Positions 5,777 to 41,445 of a DNA stretch of 41,445 nucleotides are shown here, one piece after another; position 1 is the stretch's first letter; the number at the start of each line of letters is the position of its first letter. The stretch lies in the NCBI RefSeq assembly GCF_016903815.1, contig NZ_CP069975.1; one strand, written 5' to 3'. Position numbers and translations under genes: made by a program. The DNA comes from Escherichia coli (lineage in GTDB: Bacteria; Pseudomonadota; Gammaproteobacteria; Enterobacterales; Enterobacteriaceae). The notes beneath the pieces were generated by a model. The model saw nothing but the letters and a program-made list of their open reading frames with translations, was not told the origin of the DNA and ran no database searches.

Positions 5777-8700
5777 TCAACTCTCGCGTAGTCATTCATC
5801 AACGGATCATCAATTGACAGTGGCACCGTGCGCATAACGCCCGGTTGAGGCGTGCTGACCTTTACGACAGTTCCCTGGCCTTTCGCCGAGTCTTTAGTGT
5901 GCTCTTCAATCCTGGCAAGCAATGAGGTCATCTGCGCAAACAGCCGCTTCGTTTCACCATCAAGTGAAACGGTATTATCAGCCAACTGCATTGTCGGCTT
6001 GGCACCGGAGCCGCCAAGGTCACTAATAACCTGTCCGTCTATCTGCATACGACCGGTTGGTTGCTGCAAATCGTTGGCGGCAGTCGTCACCTGGGACGTG
6101 GAGGCTGGTTCAGGCGCATTATTTTTCCGCATCCCCGGCGAGTTGCGGAGTTTATCAAATAGTCCATCAATCCCCATTTGTGCGCCGAGTTGGTCAAAGT
6201 AACTTGAGTTGCTGGCCACCGGACGCGCCTCTTCAACTGGCATCGGAGTATCAACATACACATTGCCAGCTGCTGTTGCGGTCCCCTTCCCTCGTGCACG
6301 TTCTTCGAGCGTTCCCTGAACGACTTCCCGACGCATACCCCGGCCATTCATGAATTTGTTGACCAGATCGTTAACGCCAACAGCATTGCCAATTTTGTCT
6401 ACCAGACCGCCTTTCTCAAACGGGCTATCACCAGGGGTAAACGCCAGGCCAGTAGACTGATCGATAACAGCGTTATCAGGCAGTGGTCCCCTCACTCCAT
6501 ATTGCGCCCCACCCTGTGCTCCTGCTCCAGGTGTATAGATTTCACCACCTAAATAGCGAGCACGATGAGTATTGACCTTGATCGCGTACTCACGGTTTTC
6601 TTTCGATAAGTCACCTGTGCCTTTTTTCCACTTATTGATAGTGCCAAACCCAGCATTATATGCAGTGATGGCCTCGTTTAAGTCTCCATTGGCTTGCTTC
6701 AGATATTTGCTCATGAGAAGAGCCGCAGCTTCTGCCGATTTCACAGGATCAAACGATTCACCTTCAGCTAAGCCAGTCTCTTCACGAGCAATCCCCGTGA
6801 ACTGAAACATCCCCAGAGCACCGGTTTGGGATTTTGCATACGGATTACCACCAGATTCAGTTGCAGCAATCGCGTAAAGAGTGCCTTCTGGAAGACCGTA
6901 TTTATTCTCTAGTTCGGCAAAATACGGAGCCAACTTATCGAGATTTGCCTTACCTTCAGCGCCAAGACTTCCGACTTTTACATCCAAGTTGCCATTGTTG
7001 TAGGTATCCGCAGCTTTCTGAATGTCATTCCTGGTGCCAGTGGTATTAAGCGACGATGATGACGAGCTATTTTGACCAATAGCTTTATCAATTTTCTGCA
7101 ACGCGCTATTGCCCGTTTCTACGGCATTTGCATTGATAATCTGATTAGCAGTTTCTTTAACTGTTTTATTGCTATCTTTCGCCGTATCTAGGGATGCATT
7201 TACAACACGAGTGACAATATTAGCCTTTTTAGGGGTATATTCAGTCTTAGGAGCATTGTCCTCCTGACTTTCTTTAGCTGGTGTTTTTAATTCAGGTGTA
7301 ACCTCTTTCGCATCCGCTTTGTTGACTAGCTTTGATGCAACCCAGGCCACAGGGGTGCTCTGAACAGCGGCATCTGCAACCTCACCTGAAAGCTCTTTTG
7401 CGGCACTCCATAGATTACTGCCAGCTTCTTTAATGTATTTCCCTGGGTTCTTAATGAAATCAATTGCACTATCAATTGCATCACTGAAAACCTGTTTCAG
7501 GTTATCGACAGTAAAGAAGTTTTTGATGGCGTCTAATTTTTCGTTCAGGTTCTTTGTTGTGTCACTGAACCATGCTGAAATAGCATCACCAATCTTTGCA
7601 GTATAATCACTAAATGTCGTGGATATAGTATCACCAAGGTTAGAAATATATGTTTCTAAATTGGTAATCCCACTATCAATGGCCTGGGCAATACTTTCCG
7701 TCGAAAATGATTGCAACATATTGCCGATATCCTCAAATCCAAGTGATTTGAGAACGCCGCCAATGGCACTGCTAATACCAGATACCAGTCCTCCCATATC
7801 GAGAACGTTAGCCAGTGTATAAGCCGCTTTTTGCTGAAAAGATGGATCTTCCCCATCCTTAAGCCCAAAGGTCCGACGTTGTGCTTCTGTATCATTCCAA
7901 CCGGTTACCGCATCATAGATACCTCCAGCCACCGTGCCGACTAGCGGAATTGCGCGTAAAGCCCCCTTTGCAAGAGCCTTAACACCTAGTTTCCCCAATC
8001 CCTTAGTTGCAAGTTTTCCGGCACCGCGAGTAGCCAATTCGCCAGCTTCTTTGGCAGCAGCTTTTTTCCCACCAAAGCCCAATAAGCTTGCAACTTTTTT
8101 TATACCTAAAGCGCCTAGTGCCATCGAGCCAACTTTCTTTAGTACCCCACGGCCAAAAATAAGGGAAGCAATACCACCGGCCCCCTTCCCTAACAGGCTA
8201 AATAGTTTGGACAGCAAGCCGCCCTTCTTTTTCCCGGTGTTTTTGGCTATCTGATCAAGGGCGCTGAGAATCTTGTCATTGCCCTCTTTAATTTCGCTGG
8301 TCTGCTCCTGAAGTTCCTGAACCGTCCGTTTTTGGGTGTTAACCTGAACGACATCGGCACTATTTTGCGATTTACGCCTAAAAAAACCTTTTCTACGGCT
8401 GTTATCGTCATTGCCACGAATCACATCGGCAATAGACTTTCTGGCACCATTAAGCGATCCACCAACTTCTTTTGATATCCCGCCAAGCTCCTTCCCTGCT
8501 GCCCACAATGGACCAGCAACGGCATAACCTAACGCATCGACGGCACGAGTCTCTGAAGGGTTACCTATGCCTTCAGCTACTTTTGACAGTTTTTTTAATA
8601 AACCTGATTCAGCATTTAGACGCTCATCATCCTCTTTGCGCCTGGCCTTTTCAGCACGTTCAGCACGGACATCTTCCGCTGCGGCCTTACTCCCTGACTT

Positions 8701-12964: not shown

Positions 12965-12981
12965 AATGCTCTAATAAATTT
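12965..12981 (+). promoter_or_regulatory. C1-repressor operator-like 17-mer overlapping the -35 of the immI-like promoter
   Basis: AATGCTCTAATAAATTT is 16/17 to the P1 C1 operator consensus ATTGCTCTAATAAATTT as I recall it. ATGCTC, 17 bp, TAAGTC forms a plausible -35/-10. Confidence 0.6.
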
Positions 12982-14624: not shown

Positions 14625-14641
14625 TTTGCTCTAATAAATTT
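14625..14641 (+). promoter_or_regulatory. C1 operator-like 17-mer overlapping the -35 of the kilA-repL promoter
   Basis: TTTGCTCTAATAAATTT (16/17 to consensus). TTGCTC, 17 bp, TAAGTG; 70 bp upstream of kilA. Confidence 0.6.
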
Positions 14642-36586: not shown

Positions 36587-37951
36587 ATGTCTGCATCCCC
36601 TCTTGAATCCATGCCAAATTCCCTTAGTGCAGAACAAGCTGTACTTGGTGGCTTAATGCTTGATAACTGCCGCTGGGATGAAGTTGCAGATCGTATAGTT
36701 GCTGATGATTTTTATACCAGTGCTCATCGTGAAATTTTCAGTGAGATGGAGAGGTTATTAAGTCATGGCAAACCGATTGATTTGATAACACTTGCTGAAG
36801 CACTTGAACAGAACGGTAAATTAGAACGCGCCGGTGGTTTTGCGTACCTTGCGGAGATGTCAAAGAACACGCCCAGCGCGGCAAATATTTGTGCTTATGC
36901 GGATATCGTTCGTGAACGCGCGGTTGTTCGTGAAATGATTTCCGTCGCAAATGAAATAGCCGAAGCTGGATATGCGCAGGATGGCAGGGGCAGCAATGAA
37001 TTGCTGGATATGGCCGAGCGCCGCGTTTTTGAAATAGCTGAAAAACGACAAAAGAGCGGTAGTGGTCCAAAAGATATCGCCAGCATTCTCGATGCAACGG
37101 TATCTCGCATAGAAGAGTTGTTTCAGCGACCGCATGATGGTGTAACGGGGCTTGATACCGGATTTACCGACCTCAATAAGAAGACGGCAGGACTTCAGCC
37201 GTCCGATCTCATTATTGTCGCCGCCCGCCCATCGATGGGGAAGACCACGTTTGCGATGAATCTCGTCGAAAATGCCGCAGTCCGTAACGATAAGCCCGTA
37301 TTGGTTTTTAGCCTTGAGATGCCGAGCCACCAGCTGATGATGCGCTCACTGGCTTCTCTTGCACGCGTTGATCAGACTCGTATTAGAACGGGGCAACTTA
37401 ACGACGATGATTGGGCGCGGGTTTCTGGCGCAATGGGTATTCTGTTGGACAAGCAGAATATTTTTATTGATGACTCAAGCGCCCTGACGCCGACAGAGCT
37501 ACGTTCCCGCGCTCGTCGTGTTTATAAAGAAAATGGTGGTTTGAGCATGATTATGATCGACTACCTGCAACTTATGCGCGTCCCCGAGCTGCAAGATAAC
37601 CGAACGCTGGAAATTGCCGAGATTTCTCGATCACTTAAAGCGTTGGCGAAGGAATTACAAGTACCGGTGGTGGCATTGTCACAACTTAATCGCTCGCTTG
37701 AACAGCGCGCGGACAAACGACCGGTAAATTCAGATTTACGTGAATCAGGAGCAATTGAGCAGGACGCAGACCTGATCATGTTTCTGTATCGCGACGAAGT
37801 TTATCACCCGGATAGCGAAATGAAGGGCATTGCCGAGGTAATTATCGGAAAGCAACGAAATGGCCCAATTGGCACGGTGAGATTGGCTTTTAACGGCCAA
37901 TACTCACGGTTTGATAACTATGCCGGTGCTGACTGGCAAGAGGATTATTAA
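36587..37951 (+). CDS. ban: Replicative DNA helicase, DnaB analogue (Ban)
   Basis: ORF track 36581..37951; ATG 36587 with GGTGGAG RBS. Walker A ARPSMGKTTFAMN and DnaB-family motifs throughout. Confidence 0.9.
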   Translation: MSASPLESMPNSLSAEQAVLGGLMLDNCRWDEVADRIVADDFYTSAHREIFSEMERLLSHGKPIDLITLAEALEQNGKLERAGGFAYLAEMSKNTPSAANICAYADIVRERAVVREMISVANEIAEAGYAQDGRGSNELLDMAERRVFEIAEKRQKSGSGPKDIASILDATVSRIEELFQRPHDGVTGLDTGFTDLNKKTAGLQPSDLIIVAARPSMGKTTFAMNLVENAAVRNDKPVLVFSLEMPSHQLMMRSLASLARVDQTRIRTGQLNDDDWARVSGAMGILLDKQNIFIDDSSALTPTELRSRARRVYKENGGLSMIMIDYLQLMRVPELQDNRTLEIAEISRSLKALAKELQVPVVALSQLNRSLEQRADKRPVNSDLRESGAIEQDADLIMFLYRDEVYHPDSEMKGIAEVIIGKQRNGPIGTVRLAFNGQYSRFDNYAGADWQEDY

Positions 37952-38949
37952 TGCAATGGAATGAGGAAAAGCCGATGAACATCCTGATCATTGGGCGAAA
38001 ATTTGAAGCCATCAGTGATGTGAAAACATATACGGAAATGTGGGCTTATAACCTGGCATGCGCCTTTAGTGAGGCAGGGGTAACATTGCAATACCATCGT
38101 CCATATTCCCCTGGCGTCGAAAGCCCCGAGGATTATGTTGAAGCTGTGTTGACTGCTGCGACCGCATGTTCTGCGAAGGCCATTTTGGCACCAGGATTGA
38201 GGTATTTTACTACGGTACCCAGGGAAATAGGCATGCAACTGTGTCGCCGATTCTCTGGATGGGTAGCCCAGGTATATGACGGTTCTATGCTGGATTCGGC
38301 ACCAGTCGATATTACTTTTACTGTCCGCGATGATACCTGGCGGTACCTGGATAATCCCGGTCGGTTAGAGCGTCATAATCGCTTTAACAAACATGTTGGA
38401 TGGGCAGCGAATCAGGAACTGTTCCATCTGGAAACCAAAACAGACGATGTTCTGCGTATTTTTGTAGACCACGCTGCATTTGATGTTAGTGGGTTTGATC
38501 ACTCCTTAAGTATCCTTATGAACCTTCAGCGCCTGGCCGTTCCGTATGAGGCCAGAACGTTGACCGATGACGGATTGATTACCATTGATCCGGGGAATAT
38601 ATCGGTAACCCCATACAGACGGACTCCGGTACCAGCAACCGAATTTGCAGCTGAATTGCGTAAGAGTGACGTTTTTATTGTTACGCATCCCGAAAGCCTT
38701 GGATTAACTGTTCTTGAGGCGGCAATGTGTGGGGCGTTGATATTAACGCCGCCCGATTGTCTTCCGCCGGATCGCCTGGCTTTGGTGAACCATATGGTTA
38801 TCAAGTCGCGGATTGATTGGGATGAGGTTATTGCTCGCGTTGATCGCGTGAAAAATGCTGAAAAGGTCCAGTGTCACACCTGGTCGGCAATCGCGGAAAA
38901 GATGCTTGATACGTTTATCACCCAGAAACCGTCGCGAGGTAACGGATAA
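37951..38949 (+). CDS. GT-B glycosyltransferase-like protein (P1 Dbn position), translationally coupled to ban
   Basis: ATG overlaps the ban stop (TAATG); alternative start ATG 37975. C-terminal SDVFIVTHPESLGLTVLEAAMCGALILTP resembles the GT1/GT4 E-x7-E/EAMA motif. Confidence 0.55.
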   Translation: MQWNEEKPMNILIIGRKFEAISDVKTYTEMWAYNLACAFSEAGVTLQYHRPYSPGVESPEDYVEAVLTAATACSAKAILAPGLRYFTTVPREIGMQLCRRFSGWVAQVYDGSMLDSAPVDITFTVRDDTWRYLDNPGRLERHNRFNKHVGWAANQELFHLETKTDDVLRIFVDHAAFDVSGFDHSLSILMNLQRLAVPYEARTLTDDGLITIDPGNISVTPYRRTPVPATEFAAELRKSDVFIVTHPESLGLTVLEAAMCGALILTPPDCLPPDRLALVNHMVIKSRIDWDEVIARVDRVKNAEKVQCHTWSAIAEKMLDTFITQKPSRGNG

Positions 38950-38970
38950 AAACATTGTACCCGTGGTAAC

Positions 38971-38996
38971 AGAAAAGCCCGATCGCCGGGCTTTTC

Positions 38997-38998
<2 letters not shown>
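38971..38998. terminator. Bidirectional rho-independent terminator between convergent dbn and baseplate operons
   Basis: AAAAGCCCG-ATCGC-CGGGCTTTTCTT; A-run on one side and T-run on the other. Confidence 0.7.

Positions 38999-41445
<2,447 letters not shown>

Follow-up and report, generated by a model that had tools for sequence, protein, structure and literature searches.

The gene directly downstream of the ban helicase gene in the window (the entire 41,445-nucleotide stretch of Escherichia coli DNA analysed here) is dbn of bacteriophage P1, known as glt in P7. Its product has a GT-B fold of the GT4 type, and its homologues co-occur within phage genomes with three further families, PmgO, PmgP and PmgQ, which would be the true partners of Dbn and which form one overlapping cassette with it in other phages. 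An account that combines this identity and fold with an incidental link to the helicase and with joint action of Dbn and PmgO/P/Q is, in our judgement, moderately probable. Few phages are used as much as P1 in bacterial genetics, and resistance genes in Enterobacteriaceae often travel on P1-like phage-plasmids. By comparing genomes we place what had been a lone "possible glycosyltransferase" alongside three glycosyltransferase-like partners, as a four-gene hypothesis that can be tested.

Identity and operon of dbn

The window is collinear with P1 68.7–76.1 kb, and its reading frame is one gene with P1 dbn and P7 glt, sharing 97.2% nucleotide and 97.6% amino acid identity with P1 and 98.5% with P7; a match to PHROG 2518 spans residues 1–332 of 332 (E = 3.6e-239). 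The flanks are kept as well. P1 ban is matched end to end by the window ban directly upstream, gene 5 is convergent, and the operon lies under the C1 operator Oban, C1 control being common to the window and the references. A claim of novelty for the gene is not supported, as it was already catalogued: AF234172 and AF503408 label P1 dbn and P7 glt as possible or putative glycosyltransferases, the protein records read "function unknown, possible glycosyltransferase" (AAQ14048, bacteriophage P1 Dbn) and "putative glycosyltransferase" (AAQ07543, P7 Glt), and RefSeq/NCBI names Dbn a "glycosyltransferase family 4 protein". To call dbn a glycosyltransferase is to say nothing beyond the 2004 annotation of a gene already known. 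Our literature search for functional studies of dbn or pmgO/P/Q returned only essentiality and transcriptome tables, and a search on phage WaaZ-like or SSU5 glycosyltransferases likewise found no functional study.

The window allele is neither the P1 nor the P7 reference, its nearest records (99.8%) being E. coli plasmids of ~96–101 kb. It is intact, whereas in the deposited P7 glt sequence W31 is replaced by a nonsense codon and the annotated start is an internal TTG. We rejected the resulting 287-aa model of P7 Glt as an artefact of the nonsense codon in that record; a protein of that length would also lack the strand and helix that open the N-terminal domain.

Table 1. Features of the dbn locus, in window coordinates.
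Feature	Position	Strand	Basis
dbn (P1) / glt (P7), long ORF, 332 aa, GT-B GT4-like glycosyltransferase	37951–38949	+	ORF list
ban, DnaB-like replicative helicase, upstream cistron	36587–37951	+	ORF, collinear with annotated P1/P7 ban
TAATG, ban stop overlapping first in-frame dbn ATG	37949–37953	+	direct reading
Conserved dbn core, 324 aa from Met9 (MNILIIG)	37975–38949	+	homologue alignments; GAGGA 37963–37967 upstream
Bivalent C1 repressor operator Oban / Op72ab with ban-operon promoters	33760–33787	.	operator scan
Hairpin, likely bidirectional intrinsic terminator	38971–38997	.	between convergent dbn and gene 5
EX7E codons (E248...E256), GT4 hallmark	38692–38718	+	both Glu invariant in 68-sequence alignment A1
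Invariant D173-H174 (family motif IFVDH), end of first C-terminal-domain strand	38467–38472	+	alignment A1

Oban marks the start of a transcription unit whose last cistron is dbn. It consists of a perfect ATTGCTCTAATAAATTT at 33760–33776 on the plus strand and a copy with two mismatches at 33771–33787 on the minus strand, is identical to the annotated P1 operator, and belongs to a set of five C1 operator matches in the window, where chance would give 0.2. Between dbn, whose stop occupies 38947–38949, and gene 5, whose minus-strand ORF ends at 38997, lies the hairpin AGAAAAGCCCG-AUCGC-CGGGCUUUUCU; the surrounding 61-nt stretch (38945–39005) has a minimum free energy of −21.1 kcal/mol (z = −4.3), and none of 200 shuffles folds as well. 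This hairpin likely closes the ban operon on the dbn side. With the operator upstream and the hairpin directly after dbn, the proposal that dbn is co-transcribed with ban under the repressor was upheld, and dbn, as the final cistron of a C1-repressed operon, would be made on infection or induction and not in the quiescent lysogen. A promoter scan inside ban gave one consensus match (37314–37341, equal to the "P2dbn" predicted by the P1 annotators) where chance alone would yield 7.9 in the region; an internal dbn promoter within ban, with its single match below chance expectation, is thus unsupported.

The 332-codon frame does overlap the ban stop, as had been reported, base 37951 being common to the ban TAA (37949–37951) and the first dbn ATG (37951–37953). 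Shine-Dalgarno-like sequences precede both ATGs of the window gene (AAGAGGA at 37938–37944; the other is in Table 1). It is the second ATG (37975, Met9), where every non-P1 homologue starts, that is the family start: the alignments of nearly all homologues begin at query residue 9, and the first beta strand of the Dbn model comprises residues 10–14. Among 80 P1-like loci the TAATG overlap is identical in 65 and is replaced by TGATG in two; in the remaining 13 the overlap ATG begins an extra 100-aa ORF between ban and dbn, and dbn can start only at Met9, coupled to that ORF through ATGA. Of the translational coupling claimed for the window, then, the overlap itself stands, and coupling of dbn to ban (0 or 23 nt apart) is plausible, but it is not a conserved arrangement. 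These loci came from family-alignment scans of viral contigs, which returned P1-like loci only, all 96–100% identical to the window protein; the set served the start-codon, integrity and dN/dS statistics and holds no diverse contexts. A scan of genome contigs yielded a single P1-like locus, its peptide patterns being too narrow for distant bacterial relatives.

Outside Punavirus no Dbn gene adjoins a helicase, and adjacency to ban is confined to the P1 lineage. One could envision Dbn modifying Ban or another replication protein, with coupling fixing their stoichiometry, given the overlap kept in 65 of the 80 loci and the common operon under C1. However, in the 13 loci with the insertion dbn is coupled to another ORF, the family start is Met9 rather than the overlap ATG, and no helicase gene adjoins the homologues of 46–59% identity found in other phages and phage-plasmids. 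We find a functional tie of this kind, which the earlier note had raised, scarcely credible; the placement of dbn behind a helicase gene would be a quirk of how P1-lineage genomes are arranged, with no functional partnership. Just as hard to credit is a decaying dbn that now lacks a function in P1-like phages. Its non-essentiality and lack of a phenotype, its separation from the cassette partners and the W31 nonsense codon in the P7 record would suit such decay, but the ORF is intact in 80 of 80 P1-like loci, the median dN/dS is 0.11 over 56 alleles, and the window protein keeps every family-invariant residue. Taken with the 256 representative relatives found at E ≤ 1e-3 (counted one per 50%-identity cluster), this integrity and selection show that dbn is not a chance ORF. 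It is present in 476 of 5426 complete E. coli genomes (~9%), nearly always plasmid-borne.

Fold and EX7E motif

The AF2 model of Dbn (pLDDT 95.6, pTM 0.92) has the two Rossmann-like beta/alpha/beta domains and the C-terminal helix crossing back that define GT-B, and its best fold matches are sucrose-phosphate synthase (SPS), BshA, GlgM and tetrahydrobiopterin glucosyltransferase, which use small-molecule acceptors. Structure prediction and fold search thus bear out the GT-B fold of GT4 type that had been suggested from the C-terminal motif, and the motif itself, THPESLGLTVLEAAMCGA, proved to be an EX7E element with E248 at 38692–38694 and E256 at 38716–38718; the same region is matched by the PDB glycosyltransferases 8xsg and MshA. 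The Pfam search proposed as a check gave a more mixed answer. Glycos_transf_1 (PF00534) is matched at E = 5.7e-5 (23.2 bits), but weakly and only over residues 229–315 (model positions 83–169 of 172), and just 7 of 68 Dbn family members reach it at E ≤ 1e-3. The protein is acidic (pI 5.5) and has no transmembrane segment; we would describe it, on the predicted structure, as a GT4-type (EX7E) glycosyltransferase of GT-B fold, soluble and cytoplasmic and presumably retaining. PADLOC matched none of Dbn, PmgP and PmgQ to a defence system, and its only hit for PmgO (JAB, E = 0.024) was non-significant.

Compared with GT4 enzymes of GT-B fold such as WaaG, PimA, BshA, MshA and sucrose-phosphate synthase, Dbn is shorter (324–332 aa) and shares only 10–14% sequence identity, in addition to its weak and partial Pfam match. 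A further, apparent difference concerns the donor site. In GT4 structures the first C-domain strand is followed by an Arg/Lys pair that binds the donor diphosphate, whereas in the 68-sequence alignment of the Dbn family no conserved basic residue directly follows that strand (168–172 in the model); its place is taken by the invariant D173-H174, with D183 likewise invariant, and the conserved basic residues (R84, R202 and R224) lie elsewhere. With D173-H174 in place of the basic pair, the donor of Dbn may be atypical.

Proposed partner genes in phages and bacterial relatives

In P1-like genomes dbn and pmgO/P/Q belong to two separate operons 6 kb apart. Among the 65 P1-like loci with enough downstream flank, PmgO/P is present in 64 and PmgQ in 60, ~5.9 kb after dbn, and a C1 operator annotated upstream of P7 hdmA puts pmgO/P/Q behind an operator of their own. 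P7 hdmB, hdmC and hdmD, which we equated with P1 pmgO, pmgP and pmgQ by gene order, match the cassette families at E = 2e-37, 2e-64 and 7e-60 and PHROGs 4603, 2111 and 1962 at E = 1e-73 to 1e-132. A tblastn search of the partners against the window and P1 1–48 kb had given no match, making dbn appear an orphan in P1; the P7 sequence at 78–101.6 kb overturned that view.

The four families co-occur per genome and are contiguous in some lineages. In four loci (L003, L008, L009 and L011) PmgO/P-like and PmgQ-like genes overlap the Dbn homologue or directly adjoin it; in L010 they are 5 kb away from it, and in L172 a PmgQ-like gene lies at a distance of 1 kb. In L010 and L170 all four families lie within 5–8.5 kb. 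The surroundings vary. In P1 and P7 pmgN-Q sit between baseplate and sheath genes, in L011 the cassette is just upstream of terminase/portal, and in L172 it immediately precedes genes for head closure, tail completion and the tail and is accompanied by an FkbM-type methyltransferase; in the complete phage genomes EP_H11 and IME392 (~111–116 kb) it is found among DNA-metabolism genes.

By fold search and PDB profile search, on which the assignments of both PmgO/P and PmgQ rest, PmgO and PmgP resemble Maf, MptE and sialyltransferases in fold, and the Kdo transferase WaaZ is of this family type; PF01973 occurs in many members of the PmgO/P family, one of which also has WaaZ_KDO_III. PmgQ is GT8-like, its profile matching Skp1 alpha-GalT (E = 2.5e-4) and glycogenin, with DxD, GDQG and HGxxKPW-type motifs aligned to those of GT8 enzymes. 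NCBIfam and Pfam searches of PmgQ- and PmgO-type proteins gave essentially no match. The closest structural relatives of the partners (Maf, glycogenin and Skp1 GalT) glycosylate proteins, not lipids, which counts against a glycolipid acceptor.

Dbn-like proteins are also encoded by bacteria (e.g., Francisella sp. WP_329498630), with 33–43% full-length identity and the invariant residues kept. In five of five bacterial loci an MptE-like/WaaZ-like gene lies next to the Dbn-like one or at most 4 kb from it, and these loci, which resemble group 2, ABC-transporter capsule loci, also hold kdsA/kdsC/kdsD-type, KpsM/T-type, KpsC/S-type (Capsule_synth) and KpsD-type genes. A Maf/MptE-type partner near the Dbn-like gene is thus common to bacteria and phages; the bacterial loci add KpsMTED-like export, KpsC/S-like and kdsA/C/D genes and have no PmgQ, whereas the phage versions are without export genes. 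The profile-profile match of phage PmgO/P to bacterial MptE-like proteins is limited to 42 N-terminal columns. The comparison suggests that the Dbn family stems from Kdo-capsule loci.

Possible acceptors and role of the proposed module

For the joint action, sugars, acceptor and biological role of the module we infer the following. Dbn and PmgO/P/Q would build or extend a short glycan, probably containing Kdo drawn from the host CMP-Kdo pool, with a nucleotide sugar serving Dbn as donor of a hexose or HexNAc. DNA would not be the acceptor; of the three targets proposed earlier (DNA, a replication protein or the envelope), an envelope glycan fits the comparative evidence best. Our preference, by analogy, is for a glycolipid of the envelope, for example the LPS inner core, a choice to which we would grant somewhat less than an even chance. 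More tentative still is the fuller reading in which a hitherto unrecognised four-enzyme module of Dbn, PmgO, PmgP and PmgQ, split over two C1-repressed operons, builds a Kdo-containing glycan, carried by the LPS inner core or by a virion protein; PmgO and PmgP would then be Maf/WaaZ-like enzymes of ulosonic-acid-transferase fold, and lytic growth would draw on host CMP-Kdo and NDP-sugars. If so, the "putative morphogenetic" pmgO/P/Q would be glycosyltransferases and not assembly factors, an effect on receptor availability, superinfection or virion properties would be expected, and the module, contiguous in other phages and phage-plasmids, would derive from bacterial Kdo-capsule loci. If such a module remodels LPS or virions, P1, a model phage, would provide a new type of glycan modification tied to the lytic phase.

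The role of the module in the lytic phase would be accessory, because P1 mutants lacking dbn, pmgO, pmgP, pmgQ or ppp are viable and plate normally (PMC9024508) and all five genes are non-essential by CRISPRi (PMC10695390). LPS synthesized anew within a latent period of under 1 h would change only part of the surface receptors, which weakens a role at envelope receptors, and because both operons are C1-repressed, the LPS profiling of lysogens that had been proposed would probably be uninformative. The single knockouts were without phenotype on E. coli K-12.

That Dbn glycosylates phage DNA (e.g., 5-hydroxymethylated bases) near the replication machinery and so evades restriction is very improbable. 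P1 DNA is cut and cloned routinely and is not known to show signs of hypermodification, which speaks against such a modification. In its favour, dbn shares an operon with the helicase gene, directly downstream of dmt, for which the P1 annotation mentions possible C5-cytosine methyltransferase activity, and a preprint shows that phage GT-B enzymes resembling BshA and MshA can put sugars, apparently including Kdo, on 5hmC in DNA (10.1101/2023.12.21.572611). Like T4 alpha- and beta-GT and the 5mYOX-associated GT-B enzymes, Dbn is a phage-encoded GT-B protein expressed with replication genes. However, DNA-acting GT-B genes are always beside C5-MT and 5mYOX or thymidylate-synthase-like genes (10.1101/2023.12.21.572611), and neither a hydroxymethylase nor C5-MT with 5mYOX nor a thymidylate-synthase-like gene appeared in the annotations and Pfam matches listed for 12 neighbourhoods of Dbn homologues or in the stretches of P1 and P7 that were read, P1 48–68 kb being represented through the window only. 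The comparison of restriction with and without the gene, suggested as a check, was already published: P1 Δdbn has the parental efficiency of plating on EcoA, EcoB and EcoK hosts, all of them type I systems (PMC9024508, Table S3, Fig S1). The low pI of Dbn, a fold score against DNA glycosyltransferases lower than that against GT4 enzymes, and the capsule-locus setting of the bacterial relatives argue in the same direction.

Proteins are a more serious candidate, although we still think it unlikely that Dbn, PmgO/P and PmgQ put a short glycan on a phage structural (or host) protein. Maf enzymes glycosylate flagellin, and some mycobacteriophage glycosyltransferases act on capsids. The best PmgQ matches, glycogenin and Skp1 alpha-GalT, act on protein-linked glycans, the cassette is often in or beside virion modules (P1/P7 pmgN-Q, L011 and L172), and lytic-phase timing fits. 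Against this, the bacterial relatives belong to capsule/Kdo loci rather than protein-glycosylation loci, EP_H11 and IME392 hold the cassette among DNA-metabolism genes, an LC-MS/MS study of the P1 virion reports no glycosylation (the word "glycosyl" is not in its text), and the knockouts yield normal virions and plating (PMC9024508). A stand-alone enzyme similar to BshA, sucrose-phosphate synthase or GlgM, making or inactivating a soluble compound without PmgO/P/Q, is improbable; the top folds do use small-molecule acceptors and dbn is apart from other glycosyltransferase genes in P1-like genomes, but fold rank among GT4 enzymes is uninformative on acceptor type, and Dbn-like genes are strongly and repeatedly associated with MptE-like and GT8-like neighbours in phages and with capsule-gene neighbours in bacteria.

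If the envelope is the acceptor, as we favour, dbn would invite comparison with serotype-conversion systems (GtrABC and O-acetylases), which are likewise prophage-borne and accessory and alter surface glycans. The Gtr proteins sit in the membrane, act in the periplasm and are made in the lysogen; Dbn, in contrast, has no membrane-spanning segment and, behind a C1 operator, is expected to be off in lysogens.

Gene, protein family and prior record

The gene lies where the earlier note had placed it, its ATG (37951-37953) overlapping the TAA of the DnaB-like helicase gene ban by a single base to give TAATG. Its DNA is 98.5% identical to the counterpart in phage P7 and 97.2% identical to that in phage P1, with which the window is collinear (37.1-46.6 kb and 68.7-76.1 kb). 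E. coli plasmids of about 96-101 kb carry the nearest copies (99.8%). Of 5426 complete E. coli genomes, 476 have the gene, at 483 places in all, 473 of them on plasmids. Because P1 (AF234172) names it dbn, "function unknown, possible glycosyltransferase", P7 (AF503408) names it glt, "encodes putative glycosyltransferase", and RefSeq describes the RCS47 copy as "glycosyltransferase family 4 protein", both the gene and its putative assignment are already on the public record. In the deposited P7 sequence (AF503408 75040-76038; 4001-4999 of the P7 stretch L001) a stop replaces W31 (codon 31; TYTEM*AYNL), and the protein is therefore annotated from an internal TTG start as 287 aa; in the window codon 31 is TGG and the ORF is intact.

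The GT-B fold and C-terminal motif proposed in the earlier note were read correctly, yet the fold too was already in public records. The product carries an EX7E motif (THPESLGLTVLEAAMCGA; E248, E256) and a weak, partial match to Pfam Glycos_transf_1 (residues 229-315, E 5.7e-5, 23 bits); an NCBIfam search gave no significant match, and PHROG 2518 ("unknown function") takes it in full-length. Among 1.84 billion cluster representatives there were 256 relatives at E<=1e-3, mostly of 300-335 aa, and the Stenotrophomonas jumbo phages CM1 and RAS14 (homologue entries H39/H40, about 319 kb) have 27%-identical relatives of residues 138-331, the C-terminal half. dbn encodes a GT-B, GT4-like protein and is under purifying selection: all 80 P1-like loci from IMG/VR have the ORF intact, the median dN/dS is 0.11 (56 distinct alleles), and D173, H174, H246, E248, E256, G261 and W311 do not vary among 68 aligned relatives. 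The protein has a pI of 5.5, and a search for transmembrane segments found none. In GT4 structures the first C-terminal-domain strand is normally followed directly by a diphosphate-binding Arg/Lys pair, whereas the Dbn family has an invariant Asp-His there (IFVDH) and no conserved basic residue, those of the family being elsewhere (R84, R202, R224). Judged from these residues, the Dbn donor may be unusual.

The ban operon and adjacency to the helicase gene

Coordinates of the gene, its operon and the downstream partner genes
Feature	Position	Strand	Remark
C1 operator, perfect ATTGCTCTAATAAATTT with overlapping inverted two-mismatch copy	33760-33787		
tRNA-Asn(GTT), tRNA-Thr(TGT), CAT-anticodon tRNA	34445-34598 and 36226-36301		within ban operon, upstream of ban
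TerB-like ORF	35526-35951		
ban, DnaB-like gene	36587-37951		upstream of dbn
dbn ORF	37951-38949	+	332 codons
Hairpin with A-run and U-run at its sides	38971-38997		22 bases past dbn stop, exactly between dbn and convergent gene 5
pmgN-pmgO-pmgP-ppp-pmgQ (by gene order)	3835-6532 of L013, a stretch of P7 (P7 81834-84531)		outside window

The proposed repressor control was borne out. The C1 operator has the same sequence as the annotated bivalent Oban/Op72ab operator of P1, and three tRNA genes and the TerB-like gene lie between it and ban; the CAT-anticodon tRNA is Met according to ARAGORN and tRNA-Ile2 in the P1 annotation. Since Oban lies upstream and dbn is followed by a hairpin (minimum free energy of the 61-nt stretch, -21.1 kcal/mol; z -4.3), the C1-repressed ban operon ends with dbn. 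At 33953-33972 (+), about 170 bp 3' of the Oban operator/promoter, in or just past the P1 'dicF-like region' and before the tRNA genes, is a hairpin that resembles a terminator, has a T-run and might attenuate the operon. From the tRNA pair to the TerB-like gene (34600-35990) the window is mosaic, with 34801-35134 in the P7 and not the P1 arrangement and P1 sequence from 34865 onward. Three more one-mismatch matches to the C1 operator consensus (12965-12981, 14625-14641 and 30079-30095) are presumably other C1-controlled operators of the P1-like genome.

Translational coupling to the helicase gene, which the earlier note had claimed, may hold in part. In the window both candidate ATGs (Met1 and Met9) have Shine-Dalgarno-like sequences (AAGAGGA, 37938-37944; GAGGA, 37963-37967), so coupling to ban is plausible in this arrangement. 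The sequence around TAATG is the same in 65 of the 80 P1-like loci, and two have TGATG; in 13 (L067, at 7702-8004, L024, L031, L032, L035, L036, L057, L068, L074, L081, L082, L083 and L088), ban and dbn are separated by an extra 100-aa ORF (MQRKLTKRNKNW...; MQRKLTKRNKNWLSDMLKK...VREKETQ) absent from the window, with a TAATG junction to ban and an ATGA junction to dbn at the Met9 codon. Because the inserted ORF uses the overlapping ATG, dbn can start only at Met9 in these loci. The residue aligned with Met9 (MNILIIG) is the start in nearly every homologue outside the P1 lineage, and the first beta strand of the Dbn model spans residues 10-14. Conservation does not extend to the coupling, and the eight extra residues are lineage-specific; the true start codon, Met1 or Met9, is less certain.

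The significance attached to the coupling also fails on comparison. Dbn homologues of 46-59% identity occur in the complete genomes of E. coli phages EP_H11 (111 kb) and IME392 (116 kb), in 95-kb Citrobacter/Salmonella plasmids and in metagenomic phage contigs, and none of these has a helicase neighbour. The adjacency is lineage-specific, and the idea that Dbn acts on the helicase has no support beyond it.

Partner genes in phages and bacteria

In these elements, the dbn homologues overlap members of PHROG 4603 ("alpha-2,3-sialyltransferase"), its paralogue PHROG 2111 and PHROG 1962 ("glycosyltransferase"), or are at most a few hundred bases away from them. Searched by tblastn, neither the window nor P1 1-48 kb had a match to these partners; at P7 82-84.5 kb they matched hdmB (E 2e-37), hdmC (2e-64) and hdmD (7e-60), the last two separated by the phosphatase gene ppp. 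By gene order these are pmgO, pmgP and pmgQ of P1, annotated there as "putative morphogenetic function". Where P1-like loci had enough downstream sequence, PmgO/P were found in 64 of 65 and PmgQ in 60 of 65, starting 5.9 kb past dbn, and the P7 annotation has a C1 operator directly upstream of the hdm/pmg operon. P1-like phages thus possess the entire cassette, divided over two C1-controlled operons. Pfam gave no match to PmgQ; against GT8 structures its profile matched Skp1 alpha-galactosyltransferase (E 2.5e-4), glycogenin (about 2e-3) and LgtC (0.09), in alignments spanning DxD, GDQG and a C-terminal HGxPRPW parallel to GT8 HxGxxKPW. With their Maf/MptE/sialyltransferase-like fold (PmgO/P) and GT8 likeness (PmgQ), these proteins look like glycosyltransferases rather than assembly factors.

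Maf/MptE/WaaZ-like genes recur in the company of Dbn family members, and in phages GT8-like genes do so too. Beside bacterial relatives (33-43% identity; one locus from Francisella), a 214-227-aa MptE-like gene was adjacent or within 4 kb in all five loci examined, its best named relative being the Kdo-III transferase WaaZ (E 6e-15). The same loci hold kdsA/kdsC/kdsD-type, KpsM/T-type ABC transporter, KpsD/E-type export and KpsC/S-type beta-Kdo transferase genes. Similarity of the bacterial MptE-like proteins to the phage PmgO/P profile is weak (E 1e-7 to 4e-4), with an hhalign probability of 95.7% limited to the N-terminal GPS...N motif. Directly upstream of the MptE-like gene in three bacterial loci (L005:2484-4446, L007:1393-3400, L171:6382-7356) are one or two genes of 324-353 aa that carry no annotation and match neither Pfam nor PHROG; they may encode further glycosyltransferases.

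Our hypothesis, from gene neighbourhood and fold, is that dbn and pmgO/P/Q together make up one glycosyltransferase module, split in P1-like phages and with relatives in Kdo-capsule loci. Judged by the searchable literature, this link is new.

Proposed glycan and acceptor

Dbn, PmgO, PmgP and PmgQ would jointly assemble a short glycan, Dbn adding a hexose or HexNAc and PmgO/P probably using CMP-Kdo, since the bacterial loci contain Kdo synthesis genes and E. coli K-12 is not known to have another CMP-ulosonic acid. Among the targets suggested in the earlier note (DNA, a replication protein, a cell-envelope receptor), we favour by analogy an envelope glycolipid such as the LPS inner core, because the bacterial relatives make lipid-anchored polysaccharide and the three enzyme types (Dbn, PmgQ, PmgO/P) have counterparts in the families that synthesise the E. 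coli core, namely GT4 (WaaG), GT8 (WaaO/J) and GT73 (WaaZ).

Modification of DNA is unlikely. A preprint (10.1101/2023.12.21.572611) reports that 5hmC is glycosylated by phage GT-B enzymes with a similar fold and that the sugar can apparently even be Kdo, but a base-hydroxymethylating gene is annotated in none of the neighbourhoods and the pI of Dbn is acidic. Moreover, the proposed comparison of restriction with and without the gene is available: of the 29 genes deleted by Gonzales et al. 2022 (PMC9024508), dbn, pmgO, pmgP, pmgQ and ppp could each be removed in frame, and every mutant yielded infectious phage with normal plating and parental restriction phenotypes on EcoA, EcoB and EcoK. All five genes were likewise non-essential by CRISPRi (Piya et al. 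2023, PMC10695390). The only mention of dbn in a 2025 preprint is as a gene deregulated when the host is Δhfq, and we found no functional study of dbn or pmgO/P/Q in the searchable literature.

A serious rival to an envelope glycolipid is a virion or other protein as acceptor, since the enzymes closest in structure to PmgO and PmgQ glycosylate proteins and the cassette is frequently beside structural genes. In a metagenomic siphovirus-like contig (L172:346-3095), an FkbM-type methyltransferase gene (PF05050) and a PmgQ-like gene come after a Dbn-like gene, and the genes for head closure, tail completion and the major tail protein lie immediately downstream, a context that would agree with virion glycosylation.
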